64,000 bases of DNA from Heterodontus francisci (lineage: Eukaryota), in assembly GCF_036365525.1 (NCBI RefSeq), contig NC_090404.1:5642001-5706000 (forward strand), given 5' to 3'. Positions 3,836 to 62,830 of the stretch are shown here, piece after piece (the first letter of the stretch is position 1; every line of letters begins with the position of its first letter). The translations under genes were made by a program, and so were the position numbers. Below the pieces are notes generated by a model, which made no database searches, had not been told where the DNA came from, and saw only the letters and a program-made list of their open reading frames with translations.

Positions 3836-4510
3836 GTGACTGAGGTGGAAATAGGCGGTATGAATGATGGCGCTGTTATGCAGTCGGAAGTTCATCTTGG
3901 AGTCAGAAATAACATCAAGGTTATGAGCGGTTTAGTTTAGCTTCAGACAATTGCCAGTGAAAGGGATGGAGACAGTGACTAGGCAGTGGAGTTTGTGGCA
4001 GGGACCGAAAACAATAGCTTCGCTCTTCCCTATGTTCAATTGGAGGAAACGGCTGTTCATCCAGTACTGGATGTCAGACAAGTCAGGACAGTGTGTGACT
4101 TGAAGGGGAACTTGGAGATGATAGTGTTCGCATACACCTGCTGCCTTTGTCCTTCTAGATGGTGGAAATTGAGGGTTTGGTAGGTTCTGTCAATACTCTG
4201 GTCATGTTGTAGATATATAAAATCCCTCTCCTTTGCTCCCTGCCCCTCCCACCTTTCTCTCCCCCTCTCCTCCCATGGTGGGCAGAGTCTTGTGTAGGTC
4301 CAGACTGGGTGGCAGGTTCCCTTCCCTGAAGGACATTAATGAACCAGTTGTTTTTTTTATGACAATCCAGCAGCTTCCATGGTCACTTTTTCCCAGGGCT
4401 GGCCCCATACATTACCCCACAGATTCATTCAGCTCACTTTCACAACCTGCCTTTGTGTTTCTGCGGGTTCTCTCACACTCCATTTTTCATGTTTTAAATC
4501 AATTTCACAG

Positions 4511-5310
4511 GGTATTAGAAGGGGAGGATTTGCAGTTGGGAAACCCAAAACAAACATCACATCATGATCTGATGGAGTCGCCCAATTTATTGTAACCTGA
4601 GTATAATCAGATTGTGAGCATGGAAGGAAAAAGCACCAATCACAAAGGAAACAAACTATACACGTGTTCTGTGTGTGAACGAGGTTTTAGCCGGTCATGT
4701 GGCTTGTTCCAACACAAGCACAGTCACACCGGGGAGGAACCATGTAAATATGGGGGCCGTGGAAAGGGATTCACCTATCCAGTTGAGCTGGAAAGCCATC
4801 CACGCAGTCACAACCCGGAGAGGCTCTTTACCTGCTCTGTGTGTGTAGGAAGGGAGTTACTGGGTCATCCAAACTCCGGAAGCACTGGAGAGTTCACACT
4901 GGGAAGAAACCTTTCAAATATCCCAACTGTGGGAATTGCTATAAACGTTCCGCTCAATTGAAGTCCCAGCACCGTGTTCACACTGACGAGAGACCGTTCA
5001 GATGTTCTCAATGCGGAACTGGATTCAAGTGACCTCACTGTACACCAGCGCATTCACACTGGAGAGAGGCCATTCACCTGCTCCGAGTGTGGGCAGGGAT
5101 TCACTTGGTCATCCCACCTGCTGAGACACCAGCGAATTCAACTGGGGAGAGGATGTACATCTGCTTCTTTTGTGGGAAGGGATTTGCTGTTCATCCACCC
5201 TGCTGGCACACCAGCGCATTCACACTGGGGAGAAACCGTTCATCTGCTTTGTGAGTGTGGGAAGAGATTTGCTCATTCATGCCACCTGCTGACCCATGAG
5301 CAATTTCACA
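4511..5310 (+). pseudogene. C2H2 ZNF pseudogene (ZNF-2), frameshifted fingers
   Basis: Same acceptor and linker (cag|G VLEGEDLQ...) as the other loci. Finger motifs spread across three frames with stops and lost Cys residues. Confidence 0.85.
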
Positions 5311-20414: not shown

Positions 20415-23400
20415 CATAGAGTCATTGAATTATACAGCATAGTAACAGGCCCTTCGGCCCATCGTGTCTGTGCCGGGCATCAAGCATCCATCTATTCTAA
20501 TCCCATTTTCCAGCACTTGCCCCATAGCCTTGCATGCTATGGTGTTTCAAGTGCTCATCTAAATACTTCTTAAATGTTGTGAGGGTTCCTGCCTCTACCA
20601 CCACTTCAGGAAGTGTGTTCCAGATTCCAACCACCCTCTGGGTGAAAATTTTTTTCCCCAAATCCCCTCTAAACCTCCTGCCCCTTACCTTAAATCTATG
20701 CCCCCTGGTAACTGATCCCTCCGCTAAGGGAAAAAGTTTCTTCCTATCTAACCTATCAATGCCCTCATAATTTTGTATACCCCAATCAGGTCCCCCCCTC
20801 AGCCTTCTCTGCTCTAAGGAAAATAACCCTAGCCTATCCAGTCTCTCTTCATAGCTGAAATGCTCCAGCCCAGGCAACATCCTGGTGAATCTCTTCTACA
20901 CCCTCTCCAGTGCAATCTACTTCAACGCCAGGAGCATCCGGAATAAGGTGGGTGAGCTTGCAGCATGGGTTGGTACCTGGGATCCTGATGTTGTGGCCAT
21001 TTCGGAGACATGGGTAGAGCAGGGGCAGGAATGGATGTTGCAGGTTCCGGGATTTAGATGTTTCAGAAAGAACAGAGAAGAGGGTAAAAGAGGGGGGGGT
21101 GTGGCATTGTTAATCAAGGAAAGTATTACAGCGGCAGAAAGGACGTTTGAGGACTCGTCTACTGAGGTAGTATGGGCCGAGGTTAGAAACAGGAGAGGAG
21201 AGGTCACCCTGTTGGGAGTTTTCTATAGACCTCCGAATAGTTCCAGAGATGTAGAGGAAAGGATAGCGAAGATGATTCTCGACAGGAGCGAGAGTAACAG
21301 GGTAGTGGTTATGGGGGACTTTAACTTTCCAAATATTGACTGGAAATACTATGTTTCGAGTACTTTAGATGGGTCTGTTTTTGTCCAGTGTGTGCAGGAG
21401 GGTTTTCTGACACAGTATGTGGACAGGCCAACCAGGGGCGATGCCACATTGGATTTGGTACTGGGTAATGAACCCGGCCAGGTGTTCGATTTAGATGTAG
21501 GTGAGCACTTTGGCGATAGTGATCACAATTCGGTTAGGTTTACCTTAGCGATGGGCAGGGACAGGTATATACCGCAGGGCAAGAATTATAGCTGGGGGAA
21601 AGGAAATTATGACGCGATTAGGCAAGATTTAGGATGTGTAGGATGGGGAAGGAAACTGCAGGGGATGGGCACAAACGAAATGTGGAGCTTATTCAAGGAG
21701 CAGCTAATGCGTGTCCTTGATAAGTATGTACCTGTCAGGCAGGGAGGAAGTTGTCGAGCAAGGGAGCCGTGGTTTACTCAAGAAGTTGAAGCGCTTGTCA
21801 AGAGGAAGAGGGCGGCTTATGTTAGGATGAGACGTGAAGGCTCAGTTAGGGCGCTTGAGAGTTACAAGCTAGCCAGGAAGGATCTAAAGGGAGGGTTAAG
21901 AAGAGCAAGGAGAGGACACGAGAAGTCATTGGCGGATAGGATCAAAGAAAACCCTAAGGCTTTCTATAGGTATATCAGGAATAAACGAATGATAAGAGTT
22001 AGAACAGGGCCAATCAAGGATAGTAGTGGGAAGTTGTGTGCGGAATCAGAGGAGATAGGGGAAGAGTTAAATGAATATTTTTCGTCAGTATTTACAGTAG
22101 AGAAAGAAAATGTTGCCGAGGAGATTACTGAGATACAGCCTACTAGGCTAGATGGGATTGAGATTCACAAGGAGGAGGTGTTAGCAATTTTGGAAAGAGT
22201 GAAAATAGATAAGTCCCCTGGGCCAGATGGGATTTATCCTAGGATTCTCTGGGAAGCCAGGGAGGAGATTGCAGAGCCGTTGTTGTTGATCTTTAAGTCG
22301 TCATTGTCGACAGGAGTAGTGCCGGAGGACTGGAGGATAGCAAATGTTGTCCCCTTGTTCAAGAAGGGGAGTAGAGACAGCCCTGGTAATTATAGACCTG
22401 TGAGCCTTACTTCGGTTGTGGGTAAAATGTTGGAAAAGGTTATAAGAGACAGGATTTATAATCACCTTGAAAAGAATAAGTTCATTTGCGATAGTCAGCA
22501 CGGTTTTGTGAAAGGTAGGTCGTGCCTCACAAACCTTATTGAGTTTTTCGAGAAGGTGACCAAACAGGTGGATGAGGGTAAAGCCGTGGATGTGGTGTAT
22601 ATGGATTTCAGTAAGGCGTTTGATAAGGTTCCCCACGGTAGGCTATTGCAGAAAATACGCAAGTATGGGGTTGAAGGTGATTTAGAGCTTTGGATCAGAA
22701 ATTGGCTAGCTGAAAGAAGACAGAGGGTGGTGGTTGATGGCAAATGTTCATCCTGGAGTTTAGTTACTAGTGGTGTACCGCAAGGTTCTGTTTTGGGGCC
22801 ACTGCTGTTTGTCATTTTTATAAACGACCTGGATGAGGGTGCAGAAGGGTGGGTTAGTAAATTTGCGGATGACACGAAGGTCGGTGGAGTTGTGGATAGT
22901 GTCGAAGGGTGTTGTAGGGTACAGAGGGACATAGATAGGCTGCAGAGCTGGGCTGAGAGATGGCAAATGGAGTTTAATGCGGAGAAGTGTGAGGTGATTC
23001 ACTTTGGAAGGAGTAACAGCAATGCAGAGTACTGGGCTAATGGGAAGATTCTTGGTAGTGTAGATGAGCAGAGAGATCTTGGTATCCAGGTACATAAATC
23101 CCTGAAAGTTGCTACCCAGGTTAATAGGGCTGTTAAGAAGGCATATGGTGTGTTAGCCTTTATTAGTAGGGGGATCGAGTTTCAGAGCCACGGGGTCATG
23201 ATGCAGCTGTACAAAACTCTGGTGAGGCCGCACCTGGAGTATTGCGTGCAGTTCTGGTCACCGCATTATAGGAAGGATGTCGAAGCTTTGGAAAGGGTGC
23301 AGAGGAGATTTACTAGGATGTTGCCTGGTATGGAAGGAAGGTCTTACGAGGAAAGGCTGAGGGACTTGGGGTTGTTTTCGTTAGAGAGAAGGAGGAGGAG

Positions 23401-23945
23401 AGGTGACTTAATAGAGACATACAAGATAATCAGAGGGTTAGATAGGGTGGATAGTGAGAGTCTTTTTCCTCGGATGAGGATGGCAAACACGAGGGGACAT
23501 AGCTTTAAGTTGAGGGGTGAAAGATATAGGACAGATGTCAGAGGTAGTTTCTTTACGCAGAGAGTAGTAGGGGCGTGGAACGCCCTGCCTGCAACAGTAG
23601 TAGACTCGCCAACTTTAAGGGCATTTAAGTGGTCATTGGATAGACATATGGATGTAAATGGAATAGTGTAGGTCAGATGATCGGCGCAACATCGAGGGCC
23701 GAAGGGCCTGTACTGCGCTGTAATATTCTAATTCTAATTCTAATCCTCCCTTTAGCGTGGCGACCAGAACAGTACACAGTACTCCAGCTGTGGCCTAAAT
23801 AGCTCTTATAGTCTATGCCTCAGCTAATAAAGGCCTAATAAAGGATAAAAAATCCCATATGCCTTCCTAACCACCTTATCTACCTGTGATGCTGCCTTCA
23901 GTGATCCATGGACAAGTACACCAAGGTCCCTCTGACCCTTTGTGT
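20415..23945 (-). mobile_element. CR1 3' fragment split by a younger CR1
   Basis: Pieces 20415-20917 and 23742-23945 are colinear with the family copy at 2255-3140. Confidence 0.85.
20918..23741 (+). mobile_element. Young CR1 LINE with uninterrupted ORF2 (APE + RT), 5'-truncated at the ORF2 start
   Basis: About 917 codons with no stop to 23671 (YFNARS, ETW, GDFN, SDH, QHGF, VPQGSVLGP, FADD). (attcta)n tail, flanking aatc. The first 11 aa of the listed ORF come from the host fragment. Confidence 0.95.
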
Positions 23946-24094: not shown

Positions 24095-24772
24095 TCACCC
24101 GGTGTGAACTCGCTGGTGTGTCAACAGATTGCATTTACTTTTAAATCTCTTCTCACAGCCAAAACATTTAAAAGGTCTCTTAGCAGTGTGAACAAGTTGG
24201 TGGCCTGTGAGGTGGGACGACCGAGTGAATCCCTTCCCACATTCAGAGCAGGTGAACGGCCTCTCCCCAATGTGAATTTGCTGGTGTCTCAGAAGGTGGG
24301 ACGACCGAGTGAATCTCTTCCCACACTCAGAGCAGGGAAACGGCCTTTCCCCAGTGTGAGTATATTGGTGTTTCAGCAGTTCGTTTTTACTTTTAAATCT
24401 CTTCTCACATTCAGAACATTCAAAAGTTCTCTTATCTGTGTGAGCAAGTTGGTGTCTCCGCAGGGTGGATGGATTAGGGAATCCCTTCCCACAGAAGGAG
24501 CAGGTGAATGGCCTCTCCCCTATGTGAACTTGCTGGTGTCTCAGGAGCTCGGATGAATCCCTGCAATCTTGCCCACACACAGAGCAGGTAAATGGCCTCT
24601 CCCGAGTGTGACCTCGCTGGTGCCTCAGAAGATGTGATGACTGAGTGAATCCCTTCCCACACTCAGAGCAGATGAATGGCCTCTCCCCGGTGTGAGTACG
24701 TCGATGGGTTTCCAGCTGGGATGGGCAACTGTATCCCTTTCCACAGTCCCCACATTTCCATGGTTTCTCCAT
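24095..24772 (-). CDS. C2H2 zinc-finger protein ZNF-B1, 8 fingers (MEKPWKC start)
   Basis: accATGg at 24772, 225 aa. Acceptor at 25095/25094. Likely first-exon donor TTG|GTGAGG at 26793. A degenerate ninth finger lies out of frame at ~24015-24095. Confidence 0.88.
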
Positions 24773-25189
24773 GGTGCAGGTGATCTTGTGTCTCTCCAGG
24801 TTGAACAATCAGTTGAAGCCTCAACCACACACAGAACAAATGTACAGTTTCTCCCTGCTGTGATGTTTTTTCAGGCTGTGGAACTGGTTAAAGCTTTTTC
24901 CACAGTCAGTGCACTGGAACACTCACTCGGGTGTGCGTGTTTCAGTGCTTTTCATTCTTTTCCCACAGACAGAATAGACAAACATTTCTCCTTCCACATT
25001 CAGAGGCTAATGATATTCAGGTTCCGATGAATCGAGTCAGATCTTGCAAGATGTTTGGTTTGTTTCTTGTCTGCAAATCCTCCTCTACTAATTCCTGTAA
25101 AAGATAATATAGAATACACAGTAAATGCCATGCAGTCCAACTGGTCTGTGCTAGTTCTTATACACCTCATGAAGGGACTGAGTTGTGAC

Positions 25190-26405
25190 GAGGGCAAGGA
25201 GTCTGCAAAGTGATACAGATAGGTTAAGGGAGTGGGGAAAAATTTGGCAAATGGAGTATAATGTGGGAAAATGTGAACTTCGGTAGGAAGAATAGTAAAG
25301 TAGCATTATTATTTAAATGGAGAGAGATTGCAGAACTCGGAGGTACAGAGGGATCTGGGTGTCCTGGTACATTGATTAGAGATACAGCACTGAAACAGGC
25401 CCTTCGGCCCACCGAGTCTGTGCCGAACATCAGCCACCCATTTATACTAATCCTACACTAACCCCATATTCCTACCAAACATCCCCACCTGTTCCTATAT
25501 TTCCCTACCACCTACCTATACTAGTGACAATTTATAATGGCCAATTTACCTATCAACCTGCAAGTCTTTTGGCTTGTGGGAGGAAACCGGAGCACCCGGA
25601 GAAAACCCACGCAGACACAGGGAGAACTTGCAAACTCCACACAGGCAGTACCCAGAATCGAACCCGGGTCCCTGGAGCTGTGAGGCTGCGGTGCTAACCA
25701 CTGCGCCACTGTGCCGCCCTTAATCACAAAAGGTTAGTATGCAGATGCAGCAAGTTAGTAGGAAGGCAAATGGAATGTAATCATTTATTGCAAGGGGAAT
25801 TAAATTTAAAAGTCGCGATGTTTTGCTACAGTTGTGTAGGGTATTGGTGAGACTGCATATGAACTACTGTGTATTGGTTTGATCTCCTTATTGATAAAGG
25901 GCATAAATGCATTAGAGGCATTTTAGAGAATGATACCTGGGATGGGCGTGCGGGGGGAGGGGGTATCTTACCTGGAAAGGTTGGACAAATTGAGTCTGTA
26001 TGCATTGGAGTTTAGAAGAATGAGAGGTGATCTTATTGAAACATATCAGATCCTGAGGGGACTTGACAGGGTGGATGCTTCCCCTTGTGGGAGAGACTAG
26101 AACTAGGGGACACAGTTTAAAAATAAAGGGTCACCCATTTAAGACAAAGATGAGGAGAAATATTTTCTCTCAGAGGGTTGAGAGTCCTTGGAACTCTCTT
26201 CCCCAATCCGCGGTGCAGCCAAGGTCATTGAATATTTATAAAGCAGAGGTAGATAAGTTCTTGACAAACAAGGGAGTCAAAGGATATCGGGAGTAGACGG
26301 GAAAGTGGAGTCGAGGCCTCAATCAGATCAGCCATGATCTTATTAAATGACAGAGCAGGCTCGAAGGGGCCAAATGACCTACTGCTGCTCCTAATTCGTA
26401 TGTTT
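25190..26405 (+). mobile_element. Degenerate CR1 3' fragment in the ZNF-B1 intron
   Basis: ETRTRGHSLKIKG..FSQRV motif and CR1 tail. Confidence 0.75.
25374..25719 (-). mobile_element. Full-length HE1/V-SINE
   Basis: Near-identical to 17838-18192. Confidence 0.92.
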
Positions 26406-26793
26406 GCTCCCATTCCATCAATCTCATTTCAGCCTTTCAGTAGACCGTTTTATTCCCTTTGTTCTCATGTTTTCATCTAGTTTCCTTTTGAAAGCATCTC
26501 AACTTATTTGCCTCAACCCCTTCCACATTCGACCCACTCTGTGAGTAAAGAAATCTCTCCTTATTTCCCTATTGGATTTATCAGTAACTGTATTCACGGC
26601 CACTGGATTTGGATTCACTCACAAGTGGAAACATTCTCTCCACATCTACTCTGTCCAACCCATTGATAATTTTAAAGAGCTCTATCATGTCACCGCTAAG
26701 TCTTCTGTTTTCGGAATATAAAAGCTCCAGCCTGTTCAATCTTTCCCAATCGCTGTAATCTCTCAGTTTATTGAATCCATCACTGTCCCTCAC

Positions 26794-27760
26794 CAAGACT
26801 TGTGCAGGATGGCGGCCAGTGACCCCGCTCCCCCGGGTCTGTCACCGCGTGGTAAACCCGGGGCCTGTGGCCTACCCCGGGTGTTTATGAAGCTTCCCAG
26901 CCCACTCACGGTTCCAATTCCTCCCCTGCGCCCACAATCTCCTCCCTCCTCCCACCTCCCGAGCCGCCTATTCCGCCTCACTCCGACTCTCACCCGCTGC
27001 AACAGCGTCTCCAACACTCCGAACAAAATGACACTGCGCATGCACACTGAACTCCTGTCGTGTGAATGGGGCAGATTCACCCGCGCGGAATGCTGGGTCC
27101 CAATAAACCAACACTAAAATTGAAATATACCGCATAATATTTTGCCCATGTGAAACGGAAAATAATTTACATCCCAGCCTGCAGAAGATAAATACTTTTT
27201 TTACAAAACAAACCATTTTGTGAAATGTTATTATGGGGAGTTGCGTCCATCTTTCTATGGGGCAGTGGTGCTTCATTTCGCCTGGCTAAATTGCGTTGGA
27301 GGAGTTTTGTCCCTAACAAAGATGGCGACAATGGGGCGGGGTTATCAAAACCCTTGGACGTCTGACGTTTTAGCTCCGACCGTAGGCAGGTGTGCGTGCG
27401 CAAATTACGAGTGGCGGATGTTGGGGGCGCGCGGAGGATGTTTGTTTCCGCATCGAGAAGTTTGAAGGGAGACAGTTAACGGTCGCTGGCGTCGCCATGG
27501 CTGCGGGGGCGGGGCTTGGTAACGGCGCGCGCCGGCACAGGTGGGCCATCGAGCTCGAGCTGTGCAGGAGCAGCAGGTGAGCGGCCAGGAGCAAGGCCGC
27601 GGAGAGAGCCTGGGGCTCGAGTGGGAGGCGGCAGCCGGCAGGCCTCTCTCCTGGGGAGAACACCACTCTGACTGGCGCCACCTGAAACACGGGGATTTTA
27701 ATGTCACAGCCTTTGAGGGGGAGGCAATGGGTGTGAGAAAACCTGGTTGATAATTACTGT
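26794..27760. promoter_or_regulatory. CpG-island bidirectional promoter between head-to-head ZNF-B1 (-) and ZNF-A2 (+)
   Basis: CpG-rich in a CpG-depleted background. NRF1-like TGCGCATGCA (27035), YY1-like AAGATGGCG (27319), GC boxes. Outward-facing splice donors at 26793 (-) and 27577 (+). Confidence 0.75.
27497..27576 (+). other. EMC4-like coding first exon (duplicate, copy 1)
   Basis: gccATGg, MAAGAGLGNGARRHRWAIELELCRSS(R), phase-2 donor CAG|GTGAGC. Resembles the EMC4 N-terminus as recalled (..RGRRFKWAIEL....GGSR). No further EMC4 exons recognised in the window. Confidence 0.6.
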
Positions 27761-28002
27761 AAACAGGCAGTAAGACAGGAGCTCGAGACAGAGTGTTACC
27801 ATCCTGACTTGGAATTATATCGCCATTCCTTCAGTGTCACTGCGTCAAAATCCTGGAAATCCTTCCCTGACAGCACTGTGGGTGTACCTACACGGGCTGG
27901 AGAACTGAACCCAGCCAGGGTAGAGGGAGAGAGAAAACTGGCAGTGGAGGAAAAGAGATGGTGCAGATGGGTTTGGATTTCAGCACAGGGGGGAGGGAGA
28001 GT

Positions 28003-28336
28003 ATGTTTATGTTTAGAGATACAGCACTGAAACAGGCCCTTCGGCCCACCGAGTCTATGCCGACCATCAACCACCCATTTATACTAATCCCATACTCCTA
28101 CCACATCCCCACCTGTCCCTATATTTCCCTACCACCTACCTATACTAGGGGCAATTGCTAATGGTCAATTTACCTATCAACCTGCAAGTCTTTGGCAAAT
28201 GGGAGGAAACCAGAGCACCCGGAGGAAACCCACGCAGACACAGGGAGAACTTACAAACTCCACACAGGCAGTACCCAGAATTGAACCCGGGCTGCTGGAG
28301 CTGTGAGACTGCGGTGCTAACCACTGCGCCACTGTG
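28003..28336 (-). mobile_element. HE1/V-SINE in the ZNF-A2 intron
   Basis: tRNA head, V-domain and tail as in the other copies. Confidence 0.9.
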
Positions 28337-28810
28337 GGGATTTACAGCTTTGGGGGAACGAGAGAGGAAAAAAATTTCCATAGAAACTAGAATTGTCTGT
28401 TCAGACTTTCTATCCTGTATTGACAGTGATAACTTTTGTAAACTCCTTTTCCAGGATGTTAAGGAAATAGTTTGCAGTTAAGAAAGTTAGACCAAACATC
28501 ATGTGAAGATTTGACAGAGTCACTCGATTCATCAGGATCTGAATATCATCGGCCTTGAATGTGGAAGGAGAAATGTTTGTCTTTTCTGTCTGTGGGAAGA
28601 GATTTCAGTGTGACCGGAAAAGCACCGAGATACACACACACCCGAGTGAGAGTGTTCCAGTGCACTGACTGTGGAAAGAGCTTTAACCAGTTACACAGCC
28701 TGAAAAAACATCACCCCATTCACAGCGGGGGGAAACTGTACACGTGTTCTGTGTGTGGATGAGGCTTCAACTGATCATCCAACCTGGAGAGGCACAAGGA
28801 CACCCACACC

Positions 28811-29485
28811 ACGGAGAAACCGTGGAAATGTGGGGACTGTGGGAAGGGATTCAGTTGCCCATCCCAGCTGGAGACTCATCGGCACAGTCACACAGGGGAG
28901 AGGCCGTTCACCTGCTCCGTGTGTGAGAAGGGATTCAGGAATTCATCCAACCTGTTGAGACACCAACGAGTTCACACTGGGGAGAGGCCATTCACCTGCT
29001 CCGAGTGTGGGAAGGAATTTATTCAGTCATCCAATCTGCTGATACACCAGCGAGTTCACAGTGGGGAGAGGCCGTTCACCTGCTCCATGTGTGGGAAGGG
29101 ATTCATTGATTCATCATACCTGCTGAGACACCAGCAAGTTCACACTGGGGAGAGGCTGTTCACTTGTTCCGTGTGTGGGAAGGGATTCATTCAGTCATCC
29201 CACCTGCTGATACACCAGCGAGTTCACACATGGCAGAGACCGTTTACCTGCTCTGAGTGTGGGAAGGGATTCATTCAGTCATCCCACCTGCTGAGACACC
29301 AGCGAGTTCACACTGGGGAGGGGCTGTTCACCTGCTCTGAGTGTGGGAAGGGATTTATTCAGTTATCCCACCTGCTGAGGCACCAGCGAGTTCACACAGG
29401 AGAGAGGCCGTTCACCTGTCCCGTATGTGGGAAGGGATTCATTCAGTCATCCCACCTGCTGAAACACCAGCGAGTTCACAAGTGA
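28811..29485 (+). CDS. C2H2 zinc-finger protein ZNF-A2, 8 fingers, start uncertain (ACG)
   Basis: 224 aa = 8x28, ending HQRVHK*. Acceptor ttttccag|g at 28454/28455. TGAs at 28760 and 28772. Intron end and 3' flank are paralogous to ZNF-A1. Confidence 0.85.
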
Positions 29486-29899
29486 CTACAGGCGTTGGAT
29501 TCTGCTGTTAATAACATCCAGGACTGAACAATGTTCATTCTGATAGTTGGGGTTTGTTTCTGTTGATAATTAATTGATAAGCCAGGATATAATTGAATGA
29601 TGCAGCAGGTTCGATGGGCTGAACAATCTACTCCAGATCCTCTCAAATTTCTCCCCAGACGTCCCCCAGTCTTTAATTCTGCTCAAGTGCTGGTTTCCTG
29701 TTGCACGGCCTCCTCCCCAGTTCTTCCATGACTTTCCATTCATCAGCTGTGTTTGACTCCATGTTTATTAGGGACGTGTGAACAGGAGTCAGCCATTTAA
29801 CCCCTTGAGTCTGTTCTGCCATTCAATGAGATTATGTCTGATCTGCAACCTAACTCCGTGTACCCAGATATTATTTTAATACCAGCTTCCCCAGACTGT

Positions 29900-44497: not shown

Positions 44498-45448
44498 TCA
44501 CAGCAGGTGAACGGCCTCCCTCCCAGCGTGAACTCGCTGATGTCTCAGCAGATTGCCTTTACTTTTAAATCTCTTCTCACAGTCGGAACATTTAAAAGGT
44601 CTTTTATCTGTGTGAACAACTTGGTGTATTTGAAGGTGAGATGACTGAGTGAATCCCTTCCCACACACAGAGCAGGTGAATGGCTTCTCCCCAGTGTGAA
44701 CTCGCTGGTGTTTTAGCAGGGTGGATGGATTAGTGAATCCTTTCCCACAGTCAGTGCAGGTGAACTGCCTCTCCCTAGTGTGAATTTGCTGGTGTCTCAA
44801 TACATGGAATGACCGAGTGAATTCCTTCCCACACTCAGAGCAAGTGAACATCCTCCCCCCAGTGTGAGTACGTTGGTGTTGCTGCAGGTAGCTTTTACTT
44901 TTAAACCTCTTCTCACAGTCAGAACACTTAAAAGGTCTCTTGTCTGTGTGAACAAGTTGGTGTGTCAGGAGGTGGGACAACTGACTGAATCCCTTCCCAC
45001 ACAAGGAACAGGTAAACGGCTTCTCCCCAGTGTGAACTCGCTGGTGTGTTAGAACGCGGGTTGACCGAGAGAATCCCTTCCCACACACGGAGCAGGTGAA
45101 TGGCTTCTCCCCAGTGTGAGTACGTTGGTGTTGCAGCAGGTCATTTTTACTTTTAAATCTCTTCTCACAGTCAGAACATTTAAAAGCTCTCTTATCTGTG
45201 TGAACAAGTTGGTGTGTCAGCAGGGAGGATGGATTAGGGAATCTCTTCCCACACACACAGCATGTGAACGGTTTCTCTCCAGTGTGAACTCGACGGTGTT
45301 TCAGCAAGTGCGATGAATTCATGAATCCCTTCCCACACACGGAGCAGGTGAACGGCCTCTCCCCAGTGTGACTGCGTCGATGAGTTTCCAGCTGGGATGG
45401 GTAATTGAATCCCTTCCCACAGTCCCCACATTTCCACGGTTTCTCCGT
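44498..45448 (-). CDS. C2H2 zinc-finger protein ZNF-B2, 11 fingers, start uncertain (ACG)
   Basis: Open frame with 11 fingers. accACGg at 45448. Acceptor at 45815/45814. A twelfth finger is out of frame (44437-44520). AATAAA on the minus strand at ~42990. Confidence 0.87.
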
Positions 45449-45890
45449 GGTACGGGTGTCCTTGTGTCTCTCCAGGCTTGACAATCAGTTGAACCTCAGC
45501 CACACACAGAACACGTGTACAGTTTCTCCCCACTGTGAATGGGGTGATAGTTTTTCAGCCTGTGTAACTGGTGAAAGCTCTTTCCACAGTCAGTGCACTG
45601 GAACACCCTCACTCGGGTGTGTGAGAGACTTGGTGCCGTTCCAGTCACACTGATGTTTCAAATCTTTTTCCGCAGACAAAACAGACAAACCTTTCTCCTT
45701 CCACATTCAAAGGATTTTCAAAGGATATTCAGGTCCTGACGATCTGACTCAGTCAGATCTTGATGTGATGTTTGATTTGAGTTTCCCATCTGCAAATCCT
45801 CCCCTTCTAATCCTCTGTAAAAGGAGATTATATAGAATGACATAGACTACACAGTGCACAAACAGGCCATTCAGTCCAACTAGTCTCTGC

Positions 45891-46243: not shown

Positions 46244-46649
46244 TGGTGCTTATATACATCATGTGTCTGTTCCTCTTCCATCTACCTCATTTCAGCCTTT
46301 CAGCAGATCTTTTTATTCCCTTTGTTCTCATGTTTTCATCTAGTTTCCTCTTGAAAGCATCTCAACTATTTGCCTCAACCAATTCCACATTCTACCCACT
46401 CTGAGTAAAGAAAATCTCTCCTTATTTCCCTATTGGATTTATCAGTAACTGTATTCATGCCCCCTAGATGTGGATTCACTCAAGTGGAAATATTCTCTCC
46501 ACGTCTATTACGTCCAAAGAGCTCGATCACGACACCGATAAGTCTTCTGTTTTCCAAATAAAAAAAGCCCCAACCTTTTCAATCTTTCCCGAAAGCTGTA
46601 ATCTTGCAGTTTACAAAAGGCATCACTGTCAGTCCAGGATAGAAATTCA

Positions 46650-47800
46650 CACGGCTGCATTTGTTGACAACGCAACCACTAGGTGGCCCTGTACTAACAA
46701 TGCGCAAATGCAGCCTCATCCACTTAAACGTCACTGTCTGCGATGTTCAGGCTGCTGCCAGGATTAAAGATGGCGCTGCTCAATTTATCACAGAAAAACA
46801 ACTTCAGCCCATGGCAGCAGACAATGGACATGTTTGATAGATGGCGAACATTGTGATGTTAAAGTCTCATCGAAGGACAGCACCTCTGACAGTGCTGCAC
46901 ACCCTCTGTAATTCTGTGAGGTTTCTGTGCCATCCTGCTCTCCAGCCACTCACTCCCAGCTTCCACCTTCTCCACCATCCCTCCAGACGCTAGCTCGAGA
47001 CCGTGCTACTTCCCTCCTCTCGGCCACGTGTTCCTACATTTCCCCGTCACCCCTCGCAGTGCGATTTGCTTCTTCAGGCGCAGCGAATGGCCAAGAGGAG
47101 GGAAGCGGCCCATGGCCTAGAACGAGTATCTGGAGGCATGGGGGGAGGGAGGGGGAAAGAGAGCAGGGAGTGAGCGGCCGGAGAGCTGGGGGTGGGGGCA
47201 GTGGGCAGGAGGCAAGGAGCGAGCAGTCTGGAATGAGTGGCTGACAGGGGAAGAGCGTTTTTCTGCATTTGTGCCAGTTGGTCCAGGCAAGGCAGGAAGG
47301 ACGTAGGCGGCACTTGCGCAGCATCTCAGAGCACAGGAGACCGTTTGCGCATGCGTGCAGCTTGGAGCGCTCTGATGACGTCAGCGGGACGTCAGGAGTC
47401 ACTTTGAATTCACAGCATTCTTTCCTCCTGCTTCCTGGCCCAGAATGGTCATGCGTGCGCCCTACTGCACATTGCCTCCTATAAGGATGGCGCCCATTAC
47501 TCCGGGCCTGTCACCAGGAGAAGCCCCACAGCTGCCGTGCCACTGCAGTACAAACGCGGGACTGGCAGCTTCTTAAATCAGGACTCGAGGCCAACACCAG
47601 GTGTTTATGAAGCCTGACGGCCCACACTCCGGCTTCATTCCTTTCCTGCACTCGGCGGTTTCTCACCCACTGCCATTCAACACAATCATTTCTGTCCCGC
47701 TCCAGCATCCAGTCTGCACCGTGCCTGTGCGGGGGCTCCTGTAGTGAGGGTAGGGCACATTCTGCCCCGTGGGGAACGCTGGGTAACAGCTCCGCCATTG
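46650..47800. promoter_or_regulatory. CpG-island promoter upstream of ZNF-B2
   Basis: CpG-rich. NRF1-like TGCGCATGCG (47346), CRE TGACGTCA (47376), YY1-like AAGATGGCG (46767). 47483-47650 resembles 26807-26930. Short Deu-SINE-like piece at ~46857-46906. Confidence 0.65.
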
Positions 47801-48029
47801 AAAGACCATTTTACTGAACAGAAAATAGTATTATGATCCTATTGTGATTGGACCCAAAGGGCCAAGATATAAAGTTATCAATTGATACAGAAACCCAAGT
47901 GGACGTGCCCTCCGCCATAATTCTGTCCTGCATGTGATTAACAGTAGCAGTTAAAGCAGAACTAACCCCGGGTCCCTGGTCTGTCAGCAGGTGAGGTGAA
48001 CAAGCGAATCTCGTTCCACTCACTTCCAA

Positions 48030-57000: not shown

Positions 57001-58370
57001 TCAGACTCTAGCTCATCAACTCTGAGCTGAAGTTCCTCGAGCTGCAGACGCTTACTGCAGATGTGGTTGCTGTGGATCACACTGGTGTTCACCCAGCCCC
57101 CACAGGCTGCAGCTGCAACACATCTCCTGCCCTGCCATCTTTATTGTGTTTTATTTAACTAATTAGGTTTCAAGTTTAGAAATATCACTGATAATTTGTC
57201 GTTCTATTAAGTAGTTTAACTAGTTAGCATACAAATTTAATACTTTTATCTCGCCAGTACCAGCTTAAACTACTGACCCAGTGTGGAAAAGAAAAAAACC
57301 TTAAAACACAACCACTCACACATCTGCTCCCTAATTGATGCCTCTGGGCTGTAGCTCTCACTGTCTCCAGCTCCCTCTCTTGGATCACTGCTTGTTATGT
57401 AAAAGTTCAGAACAGCACCCCCTCCCTCACTGCACCAAATTCCCATATTTAGCAAATTCCCGAGTTTAGCTCTCTGTCTCACAATTACACAGCACTTTGT
57501 GCATTAGCAAGACCTCCTGCATTTATACTAACTAGAATTCCACAGACCTGAGTCAGGTCCTGCTGACTGGGGAACCAGTTCTAACTAGCTAACTAAGTAA
57601 CTAACTGTGCAGCTGACACTTGCAGGTAGTTTGTTTACCATTCACTAAGACTGAAAGGAACTATGATTAAATATTAAAGTCAAGTTAAATGCGAAATGGA
57701 AACCTGACTCGATTTTAGAAAGAGGTCAACCTCTGAAATTTCCACTTACCAAATTCCCAAATTAAGCACTGTGTCACGCAGCACTCTGTTTCTGTTTACA
57801 TTAATCCAGAGGCCGTGAGTTCAAATCCTGCCTCGGCAGTTTGAGAATTGAAAGTCAAAATCTGGAAATAAAAAATCTGGTTGTCAGTAGATGTGACCAT
57901 GAAGCTACTGGATTGCCTAAGAATGTTCATTTATACAGCATCTTTCCCCAACCTCAGGATGTTCCAAAGCACTTTACAGCCAATTAAGCATCTTTAAAAT
58001 GTGTACTCACTCTTGTAATGTCGGATAATGCGGGCAGCCCAAGCTGTGTACAGCAAGATCCCACAAACAGCAAACACCAACCAACCACCCACCTTTTCAC
58101 AACAGGCATAAAATTGGTTCATTCCCTCAAGGGATGGAAACCTGCCGTCCTTACCCGGTCTGGGCCTGTATAAGTGACTGAAGTCTTACACTAACATGGA
58201 TGACTATTAACTGCCCCTGAAGTGGCCGAACGAACCACTCAGTCGTATGAAACCGGTTCAAGGAGGCGGCCGCCCACCACCAGCACCTTCTCAAGGGGAG
58301 ACTAGGGACAGGGTAATAAATACCAGCTTTACCAGCGATGCCCACATCCCAAGAATGAATTAGTAAAAAC
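48030..58370. mobile_element. About 10 kb of stacked CR1, CR1/L2-group LINE and SINE fragments
   Basis: Continuous RT and tail motifs on both strands. An old minus-strand CR1 (ORF1 N-terminus HICSKR..LQLRVDELE at ~57090) is interrupted by younger elements. Confidence 0.8.
54645..56712 (-). mobile_element. Second LINE family (CR1/L2 group), 3' about 2 kb
   Basis: KAMGPDNI, NYRPISLLS, QFGF, GVPRGSVLGPTIFSCFINDL, MFADD. 3' tail shared with SINE family 2. Confidence 0.85.
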
Positions 58371-58451
58371 TTGCAGCCAGTCCTTTCCTCAAAGGGACTG
58401 GTGGAAAATCTGAAGCCCACCCACTGGAGACACCAAAACCCATCCAAGCTC

Positions 58452-58965
58452 AGTAATTATCAACCAGGTTTTCTCGCACCCATTGCCTCCGCCTCAAAGG
58501 CTGTGACATTAAAATCCCCGTGTTTTAGTGTTTTGGGTGGCCCCAACCAGTGTGGTGTCCTCCCCAGGAGAGAGGCCTGCCGGCTACCGGCTACCACTCG
58601 AGCCCCAGGCTCTCTCCGCGGCCTTGCTCCTGGCCGCTCACCTGCTCCTGCACAGCTCGAGCTCGATGGCCCACCTGTGCCGGCGCGCGCCATCACCAAG
58701 CCCCGCCCCCGCAGCCATGGCAACGCCGGCGACCGTTAACCATCTCCCGTTCAAACTTCTCGACGCGCGAAAAAATGCGCCAACAATCGCTGCCTCGCAG
58801 ATCGCGCACGCGCACCAACTGCGTTCGGAGCCGCAATGTCAAACGTCATCATCGCCTTCTTTGTTCGGAGCAAAACTCTGCCAACGCCATTAAGCCAGGC
58901 GAAATGAAGCGCCACTGCCCCGTAGAAAGATGGACACCACGCTCAATGCGAACATTTCACTTCGA
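58452..58965 (-). promoter_or_regulatory. Inverted copy of the type-A half of the CpG-island promoter
   Basis: Reverse complement aligns with 27221-27758. Confidence 0.85.
58642..58718 (-). other. EMC4-like coding first exon (duplicate, copy 2)
   Basis: gccATGg, MAAGAGLGDGARRHRWAIELELCRS(R), CAG|GTGAGC. Differs from copy 1 by N>D and a 3-nt deletion. Confidence 0.6.
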
Positions 58966-60209: not shown

Positions 60210-61497
60210 TGATTAGAGATAGTCAGCATGGCTTTGTGAGGGGCAGGTCATGCCTCACAAGCCTTATTGAATTCTTTGAGGATGTGACAAAACACATTGA
60301 TGAAGGAAGAGCAGTGGATGTTGTGTATATGGATTTTAGCAAGGCGTTTGATAAGGTTCCCCATGGTAGGCTCATTCAGAAAGTAAGGAGGCATGGGATA
60401 CAGGGAAAATTGGCTGTCTGGATACAGAATTGGCTGGCCCAGAGAAGACAGAGGGTGGTAGTAGATGGAAAGTATTCAGCCTGGAGCTCGGTGACCAGTG
60501 GTGTTCCGCAGGGATCTGTTCTGGGACCTCTGCTCTTTGTGATTTTTATAAATGACTTGGATGAGGAAGTGGAAGGCTGGGTTAGTAAGTTTGCCGATGA
60601 CACAAAGGTTGCTGGAGTTGTGGATCGTGTGGAGGGCTGTTGTAGGTTGCAACGGGACATTGACAGGATGCAGAGCTGGGCTGAGAAGTGGCAGATGGAG
60701 TTCAACCTGGAAAAGTGTGAAGTGATTCATTTTGGAAGGTCGAATTTGAATGCAGAATACAGGCTTAAAGACAGGATTCTTGGCAGTGTGGAGGAACAGA
60801 GGGATCTTGGGGTCCACGTCCATAGATCCCTCAAAGTTGCCACCCAAGTTGATAGGGTTGTTAAGAAGGCGTATGGGGTGTTGGCTTTCATTAACAGGGG
60901 GATTGAGTTTAAGAGCCGCGAGGTTATGCTGCAGCTCTATAAAGCCCTGGTTAGACCACACTTGGAATATTGTGTTCAGTTCTGGTCGCCTCATTATAGG
61001 AAGGACGTGGAAGCTTTAGAGAGGGTGCAGAGGAGATTTACCAGGATGCTGCCTGGACTGGTGGGCATGTCTTATGAAGAAAGGTTGAGGGAGCTAGGAC
61101 TTTTCTCATTGGAGCGAAGATGGATGAGAGGTGACTTGATAGAGGTGTACAAGATGATGAGAGGCATAGATAGAGTGGATAGCCAGAGACTTTTTCCCAG
61201 GGCGGAAAGGGCTATCACCAGGGGGCATAATTTTAAGGTGATTGGAGGAAGGTTTAGGGGAGATGTCAGTGGTAGGTTCTTTACACAGAGAGTGGTGGGT
61301 GCGTGGAATGCACTGCCAGCGGTGGTAGTAGAAGCAGATACATTAGGGACATTTAAACAACCCTTGGATAGGTACATGGATGATAGTAGAATGAAGGGTA
61401 TGTAGGTAGTTTGATCTTAGAGTAGGTTAAAGGGTCGGCACAACATCGTGGGCCGAAGGGCCTGTACTGTGCTGTACTGTTCTATGTTCTATGTTCT
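60210..61497 (+). mobile_element. Young 5'-truncated CR1, open RT frame (398 aa)
   Basis: No stops to 61405. (ttctatg)n tail. TSD aagct (60205-60209, 61498-61502). Confidence 0.95.
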
Positions 61498-61502
61498 AAG
61501 CT

Positions 61503-61853
61503 GAGATGGACCATATTTGTCGTTTTTCTCCAGCAAAATATTATGCAGGTATATTTTAATTCTAATGTTGGTTCATTTGTACCCATTTATCTCCCATTAC
61601 AAAGATGGCCGATATCGCTGAACCTGCCATTAAGACTTTCAATGGTGGGGCTATTACCCACCATTCCACGCGGAAGTGAATCTGCCCTATTCACACTACA
61701 TGAGCTCAGTGCGCAGGCGTAATGCTGGGCTGTATCCGGGGCATGCGCAGTATCATTTTGATCAGACTGCTGGAGACGCTTTTGGGGCGGGAGAGTCGGA
61801 CTAAGGCAGGCCTGGGCAGCGGGGTCACTGGCCGCCATCCTGTACAAGTCTTG
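61503..61853 (+). promoter_or_regulatory. Type-B half of the duplicated promoter and putative non-coding first exon
   Basis: Reverse-complement homology to 26794-27180. GCATGCGCA at 61741. Donor TTG|GTGAGG at 61854. Intron 61854-62334. Confidence 0.7.
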
Positions 61854-62334
61854 GTGAGGGACAGTGATGGATTCAGTAAACTGAGAGATTACAGCGATTG
61901 GGAAAGATTGAACGGTGGAGCTTTTTTATTCCCAAAACAGAAGACTTAGCGGTGACATGATAGAGCTCTCTAAAATTATCAATGGGTTGGACAGAGTTGA
62001 ATTGGAGAGAATGTTTCCCCTTGTAAGTGAATCCAAATCCAGGGGCCATGAATACAGTTACTGATAAATCCAATAGAGAAATAAGGAGAGATTTCTTTAC
62101 TCAGAGAGTGGGTAGAATGTGGAAGTGGTTGAGGCAAATAGTTGAGATTCTTTCAAAAGGAAACAGATGAAAATAAGAGAACAAAGGGAATAAAAAGCTC
62201 TGCTGAAAGGCTGAAATGAGCTAGATGGAATGGGAGCAGACAAGCACCAGGTTTATAAGCACAGTCTAGTTGCACTGAATAGCCTGTCTATGTACTGTGT
62301 ATTCTATGTCATTCTATATAATTTCCTTTCACAG

Positions 62335-62830
62335 GGGTTTAGAAGGGGAGGATTTGCAGATGGGAAACTCAAACAAAACATCTCATCAAGATCTGACAGT
62401 CACTCTATCATCAGCCTTTGAATGTGGAAGGAAAAATGTTTGTCTCTTCTGTCTGTGGGAAAAGATTTCAAACATCAGTGTGACTGGAAAAGCACCGAGA
62501 CACACACACCCGAGTGAGAGCACTGACTGTGGAAAGAGCTTTCACCAGTTACACAGCCTGAAACACATCACACCATTCACAGCACGGAGCAACTGTACAT
62601 GTGTTCTGTCTGGATGAGGCTTCAACTGATTGTCTAACCTGGAGAGACACAAGGACACCTGGACCACGGAGAAACCGTGGAAATGTGGAGACTGGGAAGG
62701 GATTCGATTACCCATCCCAGCTGGAAACTCATCAACACAGTCACACCGGGGAGAGGCTGTTCACCTGCTCCGAGTGTGGGAAGGGTTTTGCTAATTCAAA
62801 CAACTGAGACACCAGCGAGTTCACAAGAGA
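62335..62830 (+). pseudogene. ZNF-B3 pseudogene, array collapsed to first and last finger
   Basis: Acceptor at 62334/62335. TGAs at 62615 and 62627. ACG at 62666 followed by a frameshift in finger 1 (2-nt loss) and a broken last finger. Confidence 0.85.

Follow-up and report, generated by a model that had tools for sequence, protein, structure and literature searches.

Where did the zinc-finger (ZNF) genes of a shark obtain their promoters? The question is raised by A2, a ZNF gene of the horn shark Heterodontus francisci that lies in the 64-kb stretch of DNA analysed here (hereafter the window; C34:5642001-5706000 of the 6.0-Gb genome). A preliminary description of this DNA had proposed that A2 is driven by an EMC4-like promoter and first exon, duplicated into the ZNF cluster and amplified with it, and that a protein joining the EMC4 N-terminus to the fingers may once have existed. 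We suggest that promoter capture, followed by amplification of an EMC4-headed ZNF unit, is the best explanation of the locus and probably the right one.

EMC4 as the source of the promoter and first exon

A profile search of the genome with PF06417 returned three matches, namely two exons of an EMC4 gene on contig C34 (14.17 Mb) and a relic on contig C22. The search for a parental locus thus ended at an intact EMC4 gene at C34:14.167-14.174 Mb, with five exons and a 179-aa protein, which shares its contig with the first exon in the window at a distance of 8.5 Mb and adjoins ZNF clusters. Window positions 27467-27642 match exon 1 and the intron start of this gene at 157 of 178 positions (88%, E 2e-58). 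Upstream of them, about 400 bp align with the parent promoter at 71% identity, scoring 187.6 against 45 ± 8 (maximum 75.5) for 200 shuffles, and an inverted pair of YY1-like sites lies inside the aligned stretch. The EMC4-like character assigned to this promoter and exon is therefore borne out by the species' own gene: the peptide is homologous to EMC4 N-termini, and the flanking DNA matches the real EMC4 exon 1.

EMC4 proteins of hagfish, chimaera, rays, sharks, coelacanth, teleosts and primates all contain the exon-1 peptide (RR..KWA.EL), so the direction of transfer was from EMC4 to the ZNF genes. The reverse, an origin of EMC4's first exon in a ZNF promoter repeat, would be favoured by copy number alone; with the peptide in EMC4 from hagfish to primates, and with EMC4 intron-3 DNA carried by the copies, we regard its probability as negligible. 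The presence of promoter, intron-1 and intron-3 DNA also identifies a DNA-level duplication, not a retrocopy.

Neither the finger motif nor the ZNF acceptor was found in the 60 kb surrounding the parent gene. The copies resemble EMC4/TMEM85 (PF06417) in promoter, exon-1 peptide, donor and pieces of introns 1 and 3, but exons 2-4 were not found within 9.3 kb of any of the 70 copies retrieved from C34, and the PF06417 domain, which exons 3-4 encode, was not found in the exon-1 peptide. The ZNF genes headed by this exon are hence not EMC4 paralogues and do not encode an EMC subunit; their 5' module is homologous to an unrelated, intact gene.

Organization of A2 and its neighbours

The coordinates first given for A2 are all confirmed (Table 1): gccATGg at 27497 opens MAAGAGLGNGARRHRWAIELELCRSS(R), the phase-2 donor CAG/GTGAGC has its GT at 27577-8, and the acceptor TTCCAG/G stands at 28455, in a phase compatible with that donor. 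The spliced product stops after 31 aa at the TAG at 28468-70, which supports the reading of this frame as an upstream open reading frame (uORF). The CpG islands of the two EMC4 modules in the window, with CpG observed/expected ratios of 1.08 (first copy) and 1.06 (second), are its two highest 500-bp bins. Across the 70 copies, AAGATGGCG is intact in 36 and GTCCATCTT in 34.

Table 1. Features of A2, of the second EMC4-derived module and of the adjoining ZNF gene, in window coordinates
Feature	Position	Strand	Remarks
EMC4-derived CpG-island promoter	27060..27466	+	252/355 identical to parent promoter
YY1-like inverted pair in A2 promoter	CCATCTT 27247, AAGATGGCG 27319		inside the aligned stretch
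GC box and CRE-like GACGTC in A2 promoter	27333; 27357		
EMC4-derived exon 1	27467..27576	+	uORF ATG 27497; 5' end approximate; 88% over 178 bp to parent
A2 intron	27577..28454	+	start of EMC4 intron 1, then intron-3 remnant, then repeat
5' part of ZNF exon	28455..28774	+	conserved acceptor, decayed linker, three dead fingers; acts as 5' UTR
Open C2H2 array, 8 fingers	28775..29485	+	PF00096, 8 stretches at 28775-29482, E 2.9e-55
Second promoter and exon 1 copy	58642..58960	-	ATG 58718, exon end 58642
EMC4 intron-3-derived segment of second copy	57798..58494	-	585/709 (83%) to parent 14171743-14171058
ZNF exon probably served by second copy	44498..45814	-	12.8-kb intron, enlarged by LINE insertions
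Head-to-head ZNF gene on other side of A2's EMC4 promoter	24095..27100	-	acceptor 25094

The A2 intron retains only a short intron-3-derived remnant (about 27720-27759), most of the intron backbone of the copy family having been deleted, and holds a probable SINE at 28013-28336. In the ZNF exon the family-wide TGA stops stand at 28611-13 and 28772-74, followed by an open tandem C2H2 array. Ahead of this array A2 has no AUG start: ACG occupies 28811-13, where most family members carry ATG, and the first in-frame ATG of the finger frame is at 29087, with six upstream ATGs preceding it within the exon. The ACG and the six ATGs make A2's own protein output doubtful.

The second copy, reported earlier on the opposite strand, is where it was placed. 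Its intron-3-derived segment marks the loss of EMC4 exons 2-3 that it has in common with other copies, and its 12.8-kb intron is collinear, from promoter through ZNF exon, with another EMC4-headed locus (L041), which suggests that it probably serves the ZNF exon listed in Table 1.

The head-to-head neighbour of A2 has a candidate non-EMC4 first exon at about 27100-26910 with a candidate donor at 26909, and such an EMC4/ZNF arrangement recurs at 61490-62800. Other ZNF genes in the window begin with a different kind of CpG-rich first exon, not derived from EMC4 (26400-27190, 61490-62300 and 46500-47900), which sits head-to-head with the EMC4 module. The window also contains, at 20855-23671 on the plus strand, an apparently intact 938-aa open frame of a LINE ORF2, which we take to be of CR1 type.

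One deletion before amplification

In 61 of the 70 copies the sequence quits EMC4 intron 1 and resumes in intron 3 about 140 bp past the donor, with an intron-3 piece of about 700 bp corresponding to parent 14171743-14171047 at about 83% identity. A junction common to so many copies indicates a single loss of exons 2-3 that preceded amplification. The same junction is present at the C22 locus, where EMC4 homology extends further, across intron 3, exon 4, intron 4 and the exon-5 region, with 70-78% identity; this locus is a relic of the EMC4 duplicate from which exons 2-3 had been deleted. The C34 copies depart from EMC4 homology at about +860 and then enter a common backbone. Over the intron-3 piece, 32 full-length copies differ from one another by 9.4%, from the parent by 13.4% and from C22 by 17.1%. 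The preliminary description had the promoter and exon 1 being duplicated: the EMC4 origin stands, and the source is better seen as a whole-gene duplicate without exons 2-3. At C22 itself (40271488-40268276), relic exon 1 is split by a 3.2-kb insertion, and an 11-finger ZNF gene lies head-to-head with the relic, 1.5 kb upstream.

Copy number and linkage to ZNF exons

A 33-mer searched genome-wide with at most one mismatch gave 65 matches, all on C34 (0 for the reversed control), and a second 31-mer gave 88, of which 83 are on C34. With the matches of a further genome search added, the union amounts to about 98 copies, a lower bound, which answers the call for a genome-wide count: 93 on C34 (the 70 retrieved and 23 more) and five elsewhere, on C20 (2), C22, C36 and C670. 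They lie mostly at C34:3.8-45 Mb in both orientations, and all eight further loci retrieved carry exon 1 with the intron-3 piece. The ZNF family is larger than its EMC4-headed set and has at least 424 members, the number of exact matches to one array-start 23-mer. In three loci on C20 and C670 (L111, L112 and L114), about 55 bp from the start of EMC4 intron 1 are tandemly repeated 5-6 times. On the minus strand of C34:7700373-7743902, 17 ZNF start motifs at a spacing of about 2.75 kb form a recent tandem array.

Is the module linked to the ZNF exons? At least three fingers occur within 9.3 kb downstream in the sense orientation in 28 of the 70 copies and in the antisense orientation in 3, a bias of about 9:1 (binomial p 5e-6), and on neither strand in 39. 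Long introns may explain part of these 39, since the second copy in the window needs 12.8 kb to reach its ZNF exon. An intron backbone common to 34-55 copies reaches the ZNF acceptor. The donor GT is kept in 63 of 70 copies and the exon-1 ATG in 66 of 70; the acceptor AG, homologous throughout the family, is kept in 38 of 40. The donor module therefore lies upstream of the recipient exon and in the same sense, and this bias, the common backbone and the collinearity with L041 support the proposed amplification of the module together with ZNF exons.

Difference from the majority sequence is 2-5% at -50..+400, 7-12% in the rest of the intron and 12-13% upstream; the copies were chosen by likeness to exon 1 and its intron, so conservation there is inflated, though the +249..+399 bin (2.6%) lies outside the queries used to choose the 70 loci. 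One may object that the EMC4 pieces are passengers, copied along with ZNF segmental duplications while other promoters are used and most exon-1 copies are inert. The 42 copies that have no sense array within 9.3 kb fit such an account, as do the other types of CpG-rich first exon; 6 of 36 introns do hold another CpG-rich patch, possibly the real promoter. We nevertheless consider it improbable, given the orientation bias, the retained donor and the low divergence around exon 1, and given that contigs from probable RNA runs are spliced into the A2 acceptor while A2's 878-bp intron holds no other CpG patch.

Co-duplication by itself does not account for everything. In the tree, EMC4-headed ZNF exons are intermixed with exons that other promoters serve (6 changes versus 6.6 when shuffled), and distances between modules are not correlated with distances between ZNF exons (Mantel rho 0.10, p 0.22). 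The 5' module may instead spread alone, ectopic recombination or gene conversion swapping promoters among diverged ZNF exons, so that it would be younger than many of the genes that it heads. The mean pairwise difference of 8.5% in the module against 17.8% in the ZNF linker of the same 31 genes is in keeping with this, and L041, L075 and L087 have the pre-acceptor intron in common with B-type genes. However, the backbone beyond +400 has diverged about as much as the linker, so that the low figure for the module can equally be due to constraint or to the selection of loci; moreover, the tree has a star-like shape, with 19 of 35 branches open, and the sample of other exons numbers only seven, one of which duplicates an EMC4-headed row. 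Our first idea, a module much younger than the ZNF exons, was weakened by this divergence profile and is kept as a rival. Spread of the module alone, which could act on top of amplification of the whole unit, we hold to be rather doubtful; a degree of exchange of 5' ends between ZNF genes may have occurred.

Evidence from probable transcripts

Contigs from four sequencing runs (three samples at most, with RNA status guessed, as none of the listed runs is recorded as RNA) were placed on window positions 27000-29800; the comparison is confined to shares of 0.2 and above, organisms C-J falling below that value. In all four of these probable RNA runs depth is 0 at 27094-27281 and cover begins in the 27470 bin, a hint, not a proof, of the transcription start site; sequence from paralogues, and possibly from the parent EMC4, contributes to the contig depth over exon 1. 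Two contigs, from runs X1 and X2 of one sample (of probable RNA nature), match A2 from 28452 onward: X1 record 5 (depth 68) after 41 foreign 5' letters, and X2 record 12 (depth 27) after 36. Contig pieces in the A2 intron have depths of 6-17, and entry at 28452 at the higher depths indicates that the 28455 acceptor is used.

The 27576-28455 joint is absent among the stronger joints listed (48 weaker ones exist besides), and the foreign ends are known by their length, not by junction letters, a point in favour of inert passengers. If the word size of these assemblies is 31 letters, as we take it to be, a contig of A2 exon 1 is expected to start where A2 departs from its paralogues. The last departure from the common exon-1 type, as defined by the 69 other copies and the parent, is at 27533, which gives exactly 41 letters. 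A 36-letter end would start at 27568, where the compared copies have no branch; it fits only via variant contigs at 27566-68. We believe, with good confidence, that the foreign ends represent exon 1 joined to the 28455 acceptor.

The upstream reading frame and the question of a fusion protein

None of 30 spliced exon 1-ZNF models reaches the fingers (four more loci had no usable ATG, donor or acceptor), so no continuous frame runs from the EMC4 ATG into the array, and the uORFs of these models vary from 8 to 100 aa. As descriptive figures, the copies not being independent, pN/pS against the majority falls from 1.01 (exon 1) and 1.06-1.07 (linker) to 0.80 for the part between the stops and to 0.38-0.45 for the fingers, and frameshifts number 5-10 per kb ahead of the array and 1-2 per kb within the fingers. 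Exon 1 bears 35 frameshifting indels among the 70 copies; its peptide is neutral, with neither purifying selection nor a conserved length. Only the ATG is somewhat conserved, departing less than the rest of exon 1 (3/209 versus 267/4855). Retention of the exon-1 frame was entertained as a sign of selection and rejected: phase 2 is kept in 27 of the 30 best matches but in 22 of 30 in the ZNF-linked set.

TGA stands at each of two stop sites in 33 of 40 ZNF exons. Proteins of Pristiophorus, a squalomorph, end at RFQTSV and one of Carcharodon, a lamniform, at GQGFN, in each case exactly at a stop site; since both stops have counterparts in other orders of sharks, closure of the frame probably preceded the capture of EMC4. 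The possible ancestral chimera of the preliminary description is thus not supported. Its statement, made for ZNF-2, that the VLEGEDLQ frame runs into the fingers with a single interruption is correct for the ZNF at about 4510-4961 (ORFs 4221-4595 and 4596-4961); the main subfamily, A2 included, has two common stops.

We still have to weigh whether a fusion of EMC4 residues 1-26 to the fingers once existed, or is made now by TGA read-through or by a few unexamined copies. The least-altered copies (e.g. L041) have a single frame from the EMC4 ATG to the array save for the two TGAs, two exons belonging to a minor subfamily have CGA or CGG in place of the second stop, the ATG is relatively conserved, and an NCBI model from C34 (P0005) joins the peptide to fingers. 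Yet P0005, with 1462 aa, is a run-on prediction that makes its join without using the conserved acceptor, and the closed models, the frameshifted linker, a pN/pS of about 1 and the stops of other orders all speak against a fusion. In protein searches the exon-1 query gave 1 of 42 candidates and the linker query 4 of 8, the latter all lacking an EMC4 N-terminus, and a profile search of 1.84 billion representatives gave three matches and no clean fusion (weak evidence for absence). Such a history we judge to be very improbable, and the making of an EMC4-ZNF fusion protein is not supported.

Where, then, does the finger protein start? The array-start codon among the 424 matches is ATG in 262, ACA in 37 and ACG or ATA in 125, and, if ACG decays equally to ATG and ACA, the surplus of ATG suggests that it serves as the start. 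The array is open after ACG in 7 of 8 copies, after ATG in 9 of 12 and after ACA in 3 of 5, too few to decide on an ACG start. Open arrays lie behind a strong-context ACG at window position 28811 and in L041, L061, L074, L075 and L092; L075 (10 fingers) and L092 (7 fingers) have no Met at all and may use non-AUG starts.

Other sharks

EMC4 is normally a single-copy gene, and Mustelus asterias shows an amplification of it: this species has over 20 EMC4-like models on many contigs, many of full length (about 180 aa). These models (clusters P0092, P0127 and P0049) form one fast-evolving clade beside a conserved orthologue, and in a 19-row EMC4 protein tree seven Mustelus paralogues occupy a long branch against an unresolved orthologue set. 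Two RefSeq models, XP_078057818.1 (E 1e-5) and XP_078059218.1 (E 1e-4 against the window), have the translated ZNF exon at their C-terminal end, where in these predictions it follows EMC4-like exon 2 or exon 4. As to the Mustelus and horn shark origins, the common Gly6 favours a single one, whereas Leu at WxLEL and NLLG favour separate ones. In a Pristiophorus japonicus model (P0160) this ZNF linker is attached to a histone H2A-like protein, which hints at the capture of a further promoter. The EMC4-like P0147 and the family ZNF P0162 of Carcharodon are on contigs that are both 20,355,162 long, suggesting that EMC4 lies near ZNF clusters there as well.

Relation to known systems

The clustered KRAB-ZNF genes of tetrapods have CpG-island promoters, fingers in one last exon, tandem clusters, head-to-head pairs and uORF-laden leaders. 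The shark genes resemble them in all these respects, but a KRAB or other effector exon was not found in them. According to the whale shark genome report, KRAB-box families are among those lost in cartilaginous fishes (PMC8455134).

A closer parallel is NPEPPSP1-TBC1D3, in which a partial duplicate of a housekeeping-type gene, promoter included, lies upstream of a member of an expanding family, and the fused transcript holds two separate ORFs and no fused protein (PMC12871316). There, one paralogue of about 8.9 Myr carries the captured promoter, with an ORF1 of 449 codons; in the shark, the captured promoter has itself undergone about 100-fold amplification, stands before C2H2 genes, differs from its parent by 13% and has left behind a uORF of 8-100 aa that evolves neutrally. 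The PKD1/NPIP, ABCC1-NPIP and PDE4DIP-NPIP fusion transcripts arise from juxtaposed segmental duplications, seldom keep an ORF and are often lineage-specific (PMC7419210), as here. NPIP is one core duplicon with varied flanking partners, whereas in the shark one donor module is found subfamily-wide, with a traceable deletion intermediate. We found no report of EMC4-ZNF promoter capture in the open literature (main texts that require no subscription). Promoter capture by partial duplication is a known kind of event; what is new is a family-wide, amplified 5' module with preserved intermediates.

Proposed sequence of events and meaning

In the sequence of events that we propose, the intact five-exon EMC4 beside the ZNF clusters of C34 is the source, and a genomic duplicate of it lost exons 2-3, fusing intron 1 to intron 3, as the common junction and the C22 relic show. 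Because the end of exon 1 (phase 2) and the start of exon 4 (phase 1) do not agree, this deletion destroyed the EMC4 frame, while promoter and donor survived. From some 860 bp downstream of the donor, the remaining EMC4 sequence would then have given way to DNA that runs up to a ZNF exon, the recipient presumably being a pre-existing ZNF terminal exon with a strong acceptor. The unit spread to about 100 places, mostly at C34:3.8-45 Mb. On the indirect evidence of the contigs, the promoter probably drives transcripts in which exon 1 is spliced to the ZNF exon. The EMC4 AUG opens nothing but a uORF of 8-100 aa free of protein-level constraint, and it would take reinitiation or leaky scanning to start the finger protein downstream, at the (M/T)EKPW site. 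A2 itself may use a near-cognate start, make a shorter, 4-finger protein, or be a transcribed and poorly translated copy. The EMC4 module would thus supply a transcription start and a donor, and its leftover uORF, from the general behaviour of uORFs, probably lowers translation.

With its parent, its deletion intermediate and about 100 descendants, this is a case of promoter capture that can be traced within one genome, and it shows how a large transcription-factor subfamily got its promoter. Known promoter captures in primates touch one or few paralogues; here a considerable fraction of a family has the captured segment as its shared 5' end, and the copies constitute a natural mutagenesis series of one housekeeping promoter. 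The capture also explains the run-on "EMC4-like" and ZNF gene models in shark annotations. More tentatively, the last exon of the shark ZNF genes could be a portable cassette, a natural promoter trap with a strong acceptor, a dead linker and its own downstream start, and housekeeping promoters could have been captured repeatedly: that of EMC4 here, whole EMC4 duplicates in Mustelus and an H2A-like gene in Pristiophorus, a generalization that we offer as a conjecture. If it is true, the inherited strong AUG and, in some family members, an ACG start would damp translation, and capture would be the routine way to broad expression for hundreds of KRAB-less shark ZNF genes.
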